DNA from: a virus | Direction: 5' to 3' (one strand) | Virus genome (UHGV): UHGV-0058547 | Length of the DNA: 11,709 nt | Part shown: piece after piece, positions 6,461-7,408 of the stretch | How the letters are laid out: each line of letters starts with the position of its first letter | Position numbering within the stretch: position 1 is the stretch's first letter | The notes under the pieces: generated by a model | Told to the model about the DNA's origin: nothing | The model's input: the letters and a program-made list of their open reading frames with translations, nothing else | Database searches by the model: none | Translations under genes and position numbers: made by a program

Positions 6461-7408
6461 ATGCCCCGCTACAAAAAAGGTATCCGTAATAATTGCTTTC
6501 ATCAAAATTATACTCATGACGTATTGTTCCCCGGCGCAACATTCAGAACCCGACATAATGGAGAATGCGCCATTCTTGGCCGCTCTGATGATAAATCAAG
6601 GCGAGGCTATTATGTCGTGGAATTCAAAGACAGTGGCATCATCAAGGAAGCCTATGGCTCGCATATTAAAACTGGTTCTGTATCAGACGAAGCTTTTCCA
6701 TCATCGGAGGAAGAACGACGAAAGTTACTGATGACACCAAAATATTACGGCGTCGGATATATTGGTAATGGATGTCATTCAACTATTGAAAACACCCGAA
6801 CACACCAAAGAACGAGAGCATTCATACTCTGGCATAACATGCTGGCAAGGTGCTACATGACAACCAAAGGGAAGCAGTATTTTAAAGGCTACAAAGGTGT
6901 CACTGTATGCGAGCGATGGCATAACTTTCAGAACTTCTGCAATGACCTTCCAAAATTGCATGGCTACAACAAATGGAAGGATAATCCGGGAGAGTATGAG
7001 CTCGATAAGGATTACTCACATCGCCGGATTTATTCTGCTGACACGGTGGCATTTATCAGCACAGAAGAAAATGCCAGGGAAGCTGGATTACGACGCGTTG
7101 CCATGAAGATTCCTTCCGGGCATTATCATGAAATAAATAAAATTCGAGATGAGATATTAATGGAGGCTGAAGATGAATTAAAAAACAATCAAATTCATTA
7201 TGAAGTTGTTCTTGACGGGAATATGAAAGTAATCCTGTGTGAAACTCCTTATGGCACAGTGTTGTTCTGGCCTCTCACAAAAAAGATTCAGCGTAATTGC
7301 TACATGATTGATGGTGATGTACAGGTTTATGTTTATTACCTGCGCTGGCTCATACTTCAGTGGGAAAACAGAAATCCCGACATAAACTGTGTTGCTACAA
7401 CCTGTTGA
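6461..7408 (+). CDS. 315-aa phage-type protein with WxxMxxRC...VCxRW...F...LDKD motif (homing-endonuclease-associated / DNA-binding-like family); function uncertain
   Basis: SD AGGAGA 7 nt upstream of the ATG at 6461. The motif block YGVGYIGNG...ILWHNMLARCY...YKGVTVCERWHNFQNFCNDL...YELDKDYSHRRIYSADTVAFISTEEN resembles a widespread phage protein family. That family is often annotated HNH/AP2-like, by my recollection only. The C-terminal ~100 aa are unassigned. Confidence 0.75.
   Translation: MPRYKKGIRNNCFHQNYTHDVLFPGATFRTRHNGECAILGRSDDKSRRGYYVVEFKDSGIIKEAYGSHIKTGSVSDEAFPSSEEERRKLLMTPKYYGVGYIGNGCHSTIENTRTHQRTRAFILWHNMLARCYMTTKGKQYFKGYKGVTVCERWHNFQNFCNDLPKLHGYNKWKDNPGEYELDKDYSHRRIYSADTVAFISTEENAREAGLRRVAMKIPSGHYHEINKIRDEILMEAEDELKNNQIHYEVVLDGNMKVILCETPYGTVLFWPLTKKIQRNCYMIDGDVQVYVYYLRWLILQWENRNPDINCVATTC

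Follow-up and report, generated by a model that had tools for sequence, protein, structure and literature searches.

Introduction

To our knowledge, all of the IMEXs characterized thus far employ either HUH/pII Rep proteins or small HTH Xaf factors. Those of the CTX type carry two inverted dif-like sites, integrate as single-stranded DNA, are not excised, and are remobilized by rolling-circle replication from tandem copies (PMC4246890; PMC6744903). Cri from TLC-phi, RstA from CTX-phi/RS1, and pII from the Ff and IKe phages are HUH or pII-family enzymes (PMC6744903). The known Xafs, including XafT from TLC-phi and XafV from VGJ-phi, are small dimeric HTH proteins, and the genes encoding XafT and XafV lie beside attP (bioRxiv 10.64898/2026.06.12.731946).

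Two site-specific nucleases provide a further basis for comparison. I-HmuI (SPO1 gp31.2) is a phage-borne endonuclease, and enzymes of its type nick one DNA strand. PacI is a compact, Zn-stabilized homodimeric restriction enzyme without SH3-like or additional C-terminal domains. It belongs to group 20 of the His-Me fingers (PDB 3M7K) and functions without the catalytic histidine, its role being taken over by a tyrosine in the inter-strand loop, a mode typical of the HUH endonucleases (PMC5714182). The group 20 PacI-like enzymes also contain two zinc-binding motifs beside the active site (Jablonska et al. 2017). Other members of this fold are the junction resolvase T4 endonuclease VII, which is a beta-beta-alpha-Me enzyme, and the His-less His-Me fingers of groups 16 and 21, which are limited to DNA or substrate binding (PMC5714182).

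Described here is a protein of 315 amino acid residues encoded within a window of 11,709 nucleotides (UHGV virus genome UHGV-0058547). In a first-pass annotation, it was put forward as the best candidate for the DNA-recognition, replication, or regulatory function of a 3.2 kb segment bounded by Xer sites. The analysis presented here retains it as the best candidate, and as a candidate only, for the DNA transactions of that element. We propose, tentatively and at somewhat less than an even chance, that it is a nuclease acting at a specific site, in nicking or in replication, to generate the single-stranded form of the element.

Results and Discussion

The locus and the Xer element

The window corresponds to an enterobacterial dif region, dif being the site at which chromosome dimers are resolved in E. 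coli and its relatives. An IKe/I2-2-like filamentous prophage is represented there by two partial copies, between which stands a Xer unit of 3,223 bp. The coordinates of the relevant features are provided in Table 1. The window phage is similar to the UP-phi group (PMC7307601), and a CUS-1/Ypf-like label was dropped in favor of IKe/I2-2/UP-phi-like. Apart from the dif-like site, the unit and the neighboring phage have no repeat or local similarity in common.

Table 1 Positions of the features discussed in the text, numbered from the first nucleotide of the window
Feature	Position	Strand	Remarks
Inovirus genes g3', g8, g5, gII	1-2615	-	
Inovirus pII-type (HUH/pII) initiator gene	1521-2615	-	
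Inovirus accessory genes	2743-4287	+	
16-nt direct repeat ACATTATGCGCACCAA, XerC arm of dif, left crossover	4383-4398		right copy at 7606-7621, 3,223 bp apart
Second dif-like site GGTTCGCCTAA CGGTTGAA ATGTCTTGCGGCC	4473-4504	+	inverted relative to site 1; kept in all elements examined
Variable cargo, signal-peptide protein with TolA C-terminal domain	4556-5647	+	Pfam PF06519, 5.5e-11
Conserved non-coding region	5648-6460		candidate for a cis-acting role as origin, promoter, or set of binding sites; directly 5' of the ORF
Near-invariant island	5708-5746		not present in the Buttiauxella A2 copy, which has no cargo
Near-invariant island, hairpin	5936-5950		
Near-invariant island, GGTCAC	6077-6082		
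Near-invariant island, CTGTATAAATAAACAG	6105-6120		
Near-invariant island, A/T-rich block	~6290-6345		
Shine-Dalgarno sequence AGGAG	6447-6451	+	9 nt 5' of the ATG; CAGGAG kept in other genera
ORF encoding the 315-residue protein	6461-7408	+	stop codon included; ATG start; identical to RefSeq WP_001138412.1
Predicted SH3/Tudor-like beta-barrel, residues ~21-75	6521-6685	+	1-6 copies in relatives
Conserved core, helical plus beta-beta-alpha, residues 92-215	6734-7105	+	common to the phage 'HNH endonuclease' superfamily
Predicted beta-beta-alpha unit: strand 179-182, strand 197-200, helix 201-215	6995-7105	+	
Predicted family-specific C-terminal alpha/beta domain, residues ~219-305	7115-7375	+	
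Attachment site 1 GGTGCGCATAA TGTGTTGA ACATGTTAAAT	7590-7619	-	minus-strand reading; XerC arm identical to dif, XerD-like arm shifted by 2 bp
Inovirus pIV, pI/Zot, pVI, g3'	7658-11709	-	

The autonomy of the 3.2 kb segment had been posed earlier only as an "if." The possibility that it forms part of the inovirus was rejected because in E. coli C/WG5 the element is found by itself at dif, between the true dif and hipA, and because it is found on plasmids as well. Indeed, the segment is an independent entity that is mostly encountered without the phage. The backbone together with the gene for the 315-residue protein was found in 97 of 5,426 complete E. coli genomes (135 places; E. coli C is among the carriers), whereas the inovirus is present in only 56 of the complete genomes. 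The other (left) end of the element was located in 96 E. coli genomes, at 142 places. Tandem arrays of the element occur in E. coli B27 and Serratia liquefaciens, and on IncF plasmids of Citrobacter, Klebsiella, and Enterobacter it adjoins parM. The same synteny is observed in Yersinia, Serratia, Enterobacter, Buttiauxella, Kluyvera, and Scandinavium, and on the IncF plasmids of Citrobacter and Klebsiella. The element is an IMEX of the Enterobacterales that inserts at dif or at the Xer sites of IncF plasmids. It looks like an undescribed enterobacterial family; a literature search of limited coverage returned no paper describing this element, nor one in which an IMEX is connected with an HNH-like protein.

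Individual copies range from 1.9 to 3.3 kb in length. The first-pass annotation regarded the 315-residue ORF as the only other clear gene in the module, which is the case here: the unit consists of the gene for the protein with the TolA C-terminal domain and the ORF, with no conserved ORF in the DNA between them. No recognizable Rep, coat, or assembly genes are found within the unit. The cargo between the conserved ends differs from copy to copy, with other secreted or small proteins of uncertain nature replacing the TolA-like protein elsewhere, and a 1.9-kb copy in Buttiauxella carries no cargo but simply the attachment sites, the non-coding region, and the 315-residue gene. These three components are therefore the constant parts of the element. 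The gene diverges together with the backbone, with ~70% identity in coding and non-coding DNA alike. A close relative of the 315-residue protein is absent from the 2.9 million viral contigs of IMG/VR, and hence there is no sign of packaging. Neither a circular nor a single-stranded form of the element was observed; short contigs with terminal overlaps were found, which could equally represent collapsed tandem repeats.

The gene and its product

The ORF appears in the list of open reading frames exactly as originally reported, with an ATG start and an AGGAG sequence before it. In an alignment of 10 elements from different genera, variation is carried by the third codon positions (0.23-0.39 versus 0.02-0.20 at the other two, from ~6490 to ~7300). 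The third-position ratios of ~2 to 18 are confined to the ORF, and codon periodicity is absent from the flanking DNA in the same alignment. The ORF is under strong purifying selection and is a real gene rather than a chance reading frame. Orthologues with 50-99% identity are distributed over at least 10 genera of Enterobacterales. Full-length homologues within that range of identity are found in E. coli, Enterobacter, Buttiauxella, Yersinia, Serratia, Kluyvera, and Scandinavium, and those in Rouxiella, Tatumella, and Citrobacter are partial or truncated. The RefSeq entry is labeled as a hypothetical protein.

The model of the protein calculated with AlphaFold2 (pLDDT 85.6 for the whole protein and 93.5 for the core when predicted alone) consists of three domains and does not contain an HTH domain. 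The N-terminal stretch noted at the outset (GATFRTRHNGECAILG...YYVVEFKDSG...GSHIKTGSVSD) extends from residue 25 to residue 76, and its description as a small beta-rich module agrees with the predicted SH3/Tudor-like barrel, which is repeated in some relatives. The remaining motifs are likewise present as quoted, with WHNMLARCY at residues 124-132, VCERW at 149-153, Phe 156 and Phe 159, LDKD at 181-184, Tyr 191, Thr 195, and Phe 198. In the predicted beta-beta-alpha unit, Asp 182, Lys 183, and Asp 184 close the first strand, Tyr 191 and Ser 192 lie in the loop, and Asn 204 is positioned at the start of the helix. The predicted fold of the C-terminal domain combines a pair of helices, a sheet of five strands, and a long helix. 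A search with this domain alone yielded nothing but fragments of the same E. coli protein, and it has no homologues beyond the family.

Relationship to phage proteins

The motif block had been ascribed to a large group of phage proteins often annotated as HNH/AP2-like, and this kinship is borne out by the profile searches. Residues 32-252 match PHROG 2081 (2e-35), PHROG 953 (7.4e-23), and PHROG 374 (1.3e-17; 'HNH endonuclease'), and with tblastn relatives were found in 823 phage records, where they are labeled as HNH endonucleases, winged-helix proteins, or hypothetical proteins. A profile search at E<=1e-3 retrieved 38,888 related clusters (50% identity), the members of this superfamily of ~39,000 clusters being mostly phage proteins labeled 'HNH endonuclease.' Pfam, on the other hand, gave no match above threshold for the 315-residue protein. 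A Pfam hit to TED_2 was rejected as noise (E 0.014, 15.7 bits versus a cut-off of 27), and the same applies to Cas7_IIId in PADLOC (E 0.016). The NCBIfam search was empty. Searches of PDB sequences with phmmer (single sequence) and with hmmsearch (41-sequence profile) gave 0 matches, and with Foldseek the best E-value for the whole model against the PDB was not under 0.25. No experimental paper on the superfamily domain, in any member, was found in the literature search.

The phage proteins of PHROGs 2081, 953, and 374, for example gp146 of Bacillus phage Sophrita and gp46 of Chotacabras, are homologous to the 315-residue protein over residues ~20-250 (tblastn, 1e-15 to 1e-21). They contain the same SH3-like barrel and core together with the same W..M..RCY, VC.RW, LDKD, YS, and N motifs. 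Whereas these proteins reside in tailed-phage genomes and can end in NUMOD-like or AP2-like tails, the IMEX protein has neither, but rather its own alpha/beta C-terminal domain, and it is a fixed part of a Xer-dependent element. Cys 131, Cys 150, His 154, and Cys 160 are conserved, but position 196, a near-invariant cysteine in other relatives, is a valine in the IMEX protein. The NUMOD-like tail of the I-HmuI type is the only recurrent Pfam domain among the relatives (11 of 59 representatives). The new features of the 315-residue protein are its C-terminal domain and its genomic role; the phage superfamily to which it belongs is large and uncharacterized.

Close relatives lie in the Xer element, and phage relatives are found in positions like those of homing endonucleases: beside RNR, inside ThyA, and in replication modules. 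Such surroundings suggest another reading of the gene, namely that it encodes a selfish or defensive nuclease dispensable for movement of the element, being either a riding homing-type gene or a weapon against rival dif elements, filamentous-phage RFs, or plasmids. We consider this reading rather unlikely, as we do its defensive version, in which the nuclease would complement a TolA-decoy cargo. Consistent with it, every relative outside the IMEXs is a phage gene situated like a homing endonuclease or a moron, the secreted TolA-domain protein could block Tol-dependent entry of phages or colicins, and the dif site is contested among IMEXs. A homing gene normally has a sporadic distribution, however, whereas this one is present in essentially every copy (96 versus 97 genomes), co-diverges with the backbone, and is the sole gene of the minimal Buttiauxella copy. 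Furthermore, no defense system was matched in PADLOC, and no immunity or partner gene is evident.

A putative active site without the histidine

The first-pass annotation recorded no catalytic HNH motif, and in this it was correct. The catalytic histidine is missing, with Asp 182, Lys 183, and Asp 184 occupying the end of the first strand, and no hairpin histidine is conserved across the superfamily. Other residues of the kind expected in a catalytic center are retained. Across 59 diverse representatives, full invariance is limited to Gly 102 and Tyr 191; Asp 182, Lys 183, Asp 184, Ser 192, and Asn 204 are at least 90% conserved in the same set, and all seven are invariant in the IMEX subfamily. 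The arrangement in the predicted model, a beta-hairpin followed by a helix with the invariant Asn 204 at its start, is the one expected of a His-Me finger.

The sequence comparisons are less forthcoming. Neither the 315-residue protein nor the 59 relatives match the canonical HNH families of Pfam (PF01844, PF13392, and others). Alignment of the core profile with that of I-HmuI by hhalign gave a probability of 0.1, and the full profile shows no similarity to SPO1 gp27.3 ('replication initiation by nicking'). Given the weak scores and the negative hhalign result with I-HmuI, the assignment of the core as a His-less representative within the His-Me finger superfamily is put forward as a reasoned hypothesis. 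I-HmuI does contain the NUMOD-like C-terminal domain that is common to many of the relatives, but its catalytic domain shows no profile similarity to the 315-residue protein, which lacks both the canonical HNH motif and the NUMOD-like domain.

In one respect, the original description requires revision. The block running from WHNMLARCY through LDKD and the tyrosine to the asparagine is more than a set of accessory DNA-binding motifs alongside a nuclease: in most relatives it constitutes the only candidate catalytic domain. Because of this, and because it is predicted to end in a beta-beta-alpha unit with invariant or near-invariant polar residues, the block is more likely the nuclease itself, albeit without the histidine. 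PacI offers a possible parallel. As in that enzyme, a tyrosine is located between the strands: Tyr 191, which is 100% invariant, sits in the predicted 183-196 loop, although its equivalence to the PacI residue is putative and no sequence similarity between the two proteins is detectable. That the protein is a new type of initiator for replication or mobilization, a His-less, PacI-like nickase, possibly with Tyr 191 as the nucleophile and in place of an HUH Rep in a minimal, satellite-like element integrating as ssDNA, is doubtful in our estimation, and so is the extension by which the superfamily of ~39,000 clusters would represent an unrecognized class of tyrosine-dependent site-specific nickases.

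The absence of the histidine can also be explained by loss of catalysis, leaving a sequence-specific DNA-binding regulator of nuclease descent that represses or activates the cargo promoter or its own. Binding-only His-less His-Me fingers are indeed known (groups 16 and 21; PMC5714182), some of the relatives in Vibrio phages are annotated as winged-helix DNA-binding proteins, and a regulatory function was among the options listed in the first-pass annotation. On the other hand, loss of the histidine is common to the entire superfamily, including members that occupy the positions of classical homing endonucleases and contain no further nuclease domain, and the invariant Asp, Lys, Asp, Tyr, Ser, and Asn residues argue for chemistry rather than binding alone. 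A dead nuclease is judged quite unlikely.

The attachment sites

As can be seen in Table 1, the element contains two dif-like sites in inverted orientation. In site 1 the XerC arm is perfect, and the central region matches dif on the XerC side only. In E. coli WG5, Yersinia, Serratia, and Buttiauxella, a complete dif is found on the cargo side of the element and the element site on the gene side. Pairing between the two inverted sites holds in 93% of cells, as compared to 24-45% for slid controls, and includes 2 compensatory pairs. For 7 tandem or circular junction sequences, representing 6 genera, one and the same forked hairpin is predicted, with loops of 8 to 76 nt. The fold energy of the element hairpin is significant for the compact version in Yersinia alone (z-score -3.4 versus -1.0 for E. 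coli), and the z-score for the phage's own att hairpin is -6 to -8.6. One or two events may account for the compensatory changes. With its inverted dif-like sites and tandem arrays, the element looks to be of the CTX type; given the E. coli z-score and the few compensatory events, a VGJ-type double-stranded site, formed by site 1 alone, is still a candidate.

The position of the gene relative to site 1 raises a further possibility, that of a Xer accessory or activation factor, which is the main rival to the preferred reading. Such a protein would bind beside the attachment site and, in the manner of XafT and XafV, would stimulate XerC/XerD or process their Holliday junction, allowing integration or excision of the element independently of FtsK; the nuclease-like core would then serve as a DNA- or junction-binding module. 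No other ORF is as close to the attachment site as this gene, which stops ~180 bp short of site 1, just as xafT and xafV stand beside attP, and site 1 alone is VGJ-like, a type of site that integrates ~10^4-fold better with a Xaf (bioRxiv 10.64898/2026.06.12.731946). In addition, the novel C-terminal domain could mediate a protein interaction, and a junction resolvase, T4 endonuclease VII, is itself of the beta-beta-alpha-Me type (PMC5714182). The known Xafs, however, are small dimeric HTH proteins, whereas the protein considered here has a nuclease-like core and no Pfam match of any kind, including DUF3653. An activator would not need the strictly kept acidic, tyrosine, and asparagine residues that are typical of a catalytic center, and a CTX-type mechanism accounts better for the tandem arrays and for the conservation of a second, inverted site. 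We regard both the accessory factor and the binding role that it would assign to the core as unlikely.

The non-coding region

The DNA directly upstream of the gene is conserved across genera approximately as strongly as coding sequence and is almost free of insertions and deletions from ~5860 to 6430. A hidden gene was rejected: six-frame cross-genus matches occur in all frames with no consistent ORF, and there is no codon periodicity. A structured RNA was also rejected, with no match in Rfam and an RNAalifold covariation term of +0.67, only short invariant hairpins being present. The region shows no similarity to the neighboring phage or to any phage record, and with no shared repeat either, the idea of an origin borrowed from that phage found no support. 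We read the region as functional at the DNA level. In the Ff phages, an intergenic region stands before gene II, and the layout of the non-coding region and the 315-residue gene may be likened to it.

A proposed mechanism

The preferred reading is that of a nicking or replication nuclease. In this scheme, the 315-residue protein would be the backbone protein of a small XerCD-exploiting IMEX, with an ancestry among the free-standing, homing-endonuclease-like proteins that tailed phages encode. Its SH3-like barrel would contact DNA and would be followed by a metal-dependent His-less beta-beta-alpha nuclease core (with the D-K-D, Y-S, and N residues) and by the novel C-terminal domain. The protein would bind to a specific site in the DNA of the element, probably within the ~800-nt non-coding region or else in the attachment region, and would nick one strand. 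The nick would then start strand-displacement synthesis of the rolling-circle type from integrated, often tandem, copies. In the resulting single-stranded circle, the two inverted dif-like sites would fold into a hairpin, and XerC and XerD would insert the folded circle into dif or into the Xer sites of plasmids, in the same way as CTX-phi and RS1. We infer a nuclease activity, a target site, and a role in replication or mobilization for the protein from these comparisons.

Self-nicking is the most economical reading because single-stranded-type attachment is probable and tandem arrays occur, and because the element has no known Rep and shares no helper origin. It is also suggested by the ancestry of the sole constant protein, which derives from site-specific phage endonucleases and has kept its catalytic-looking residues. 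Counted in its favor are the constancy of the gene, the nuclease ancestry, the conserved residues, the CTX-type appearance of the element, and the conserved ~800 nt of upstream DNA. Counted against it are the lack of a significant sequence link to canonical HNH proteins by Pfam, hhalign, or a PDB profile, the energetically ordinary attachment hairpin in E. coli, and the missing close relative in IMG/VR. Moreover, we know of no precedent for a beta-beta-alpha Rep, the known satellites employing HUH Reps. The analogy with Cri, RstA, and pII is one of position and logic only: the 315-residue protein is the one conserved protein of a small dif-integrating element with tandem arrays and inverted dif-like sites, and a long conserved non-coding region precedes it. 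It has no HUH motif and no match in Pfam or NCBIfam to the pII, Cri, RstA, or Rep families.

Conclusions

If the proposed function is correct, a Xer-exploiting element would be run by a type of nuclease never before linked to IMEXs. It would also provide the first functional handle on a huge phage superfamily that is without a Pfam entry and is labeled 'HNH endonuclease' despite the missing catalytic histidine. The element is convenient for experiment, given its size of 1.9-3.3 kb and its presence in the E. coli C laboratory strain, in the tandem arrays of other strains, and on IncF plasmids. Its exchangeable secreted cargo, the TolA-domain protein included, may affect the entry of filamentous phages and colicins. 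Finally, since the element occupies dif while a functional dif persists beside it, it is relevant to the assembly of IMEX arrays in enterobacteria.

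Non-coding Region and Dif-like Sites

The coordinates of the relevant features are provided in the table. The non-coding region of ~800 nt that extends from 5648 to 6460 is conserved in at least eight genera to about the level of coding sequence, and the portion from ~5860 to 6430 is almost devoid of indels. Neither codon periodicity, nor an Rfam match, nor covariation was found when these were sought across 5648-6460. Near-invariant islands punctuate the region.

Features of the element
Feature	Position	Strand	Sequence	Remark
Near-invariant island	5708-5746		GTCAGCTCAAGCCGCATGGCTCTCCTGCGGAGGGCTTAA	absent in the cargo-less Buttiauxella A2 copy
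Near-invariant island	5936-5950		CCACCCTATCGGGTG	hairpin
Near-invariant island	6077-6082		GGTCAC	
Near-invariant island	6105-6120		CTGTATAAATAAACAG	hairpin
Inverted dif-like sites (two)	7590-7619 and 4473-4504			
Cargo gene	4556-5647	+		363-aa product; signal peptide and TolA C-terminal homology
Right flank of cargo cassette	5656-5691 and 5708-5746			terminator plus conserved block

Across the junction of a circular or tandem form, the two inverted dif-like sites can possibly fold into a forked hairpin like that of CTX-phi, both in the window and at six comparison loci (L004, L007, L008, L013, L019, and L021). The XerC arms of this hairpin are proximal to the loop, whereas in the att hairpin of the neighboring phage (4304-4400) the XerD-like arms occupy that position, and thus the two topologies are opposite.

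The accessory region of that phage encodes, at 3503-4084 (+ strand), a "mobilome CxxCx(11)CxxC" protein (TIGR04402, 1.1e-41) whose N-terminal helices are SLATT/DUF4231-like. In copies of this phage from other E. coli (UM146) this slot is filled by different genes. Short tandem repeats of 12-15 nt at 16-97 and 11624-11705 (minus strand) code for the glycine-rich linker in g3p, by which the phage attaches, and their number varies between strains, as is likewise the case in UP-phi (PMC7307601).

Distribution of the Element and Its Relatives

The element is carried by the laboratory strain E. coli C and its lineage, namely NCTC122, C122, and WG5 (locus L003; matches H78-H86), with one copy in this lineage being interrupted by ISSen4. 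It also adjoins parM on IncFIB/IncFII plasmids that are conjugative or mobilizable, from Citrobacter, Klebsiella, and Enterobacter (L025, L026), and therefore plasmid Xer sites are used by the element in addition to chromosomal dif. The gene for the 315-aa nuclease-like protein also occurs, at 99% identity and together with the E. coli phage att region, on JARKOR010000214.1 (L018), a contig labeled as a "Candidatus Nanosynbacter sp." MAG; the contig is almost certainly mis-binned and of enterobacterial origin.

The first two predicted domains of the 315-aa protein, the SH3-like plus core module, were also observed as an in-frame insertion within thymidylate synthase (L016; proteins P0042, P0044, P0049, and P0050). 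In the Bacillus phage 015DV002 (1003-2697), ThyA and the inserted module form a single CDS of 564 aa, and metagenomic proteins of 467-543 aa contain the two halves of ThyA. These ThyA-insertion proteins show no obvious intein motifs, and the module is either a mobile element that sits in frame or an unusual case of domain insertion.

Possible Cargo Exchange and the TolA-domain Protein

For the first cargo gene, the promoter region and the 5' stretch that codes for the signal peptide are kept across elements (window 4471-4572 versus L001, L005, L008, L015, and L019), whereas the mature portions of the encoded proteins are wholly different, which suggests that secreted cargo is swapped in a cassette-like manner between conserved flanks.

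In the window copy, the signal peptide of the cargo protein appears cleavable (MKRLILAATVISASLLPFTCSANA). Its TolA C-terminal (domain III) homology region matches Pfam PF06519 at 5.5e-11, and the protein scores 59.4 bits against TIGR02794, for which the cut-off is 59.45. The g3p of Ff/IKe-type phages and the group A colicins use TolA domain III as their co-receptor (see also PMC4339652). Because of this co-receptor function, the cargo protein, whose gene lies at dif next to an inovirus, could serve as a periplasmic decoy that blocks superinfection or colicin entry.
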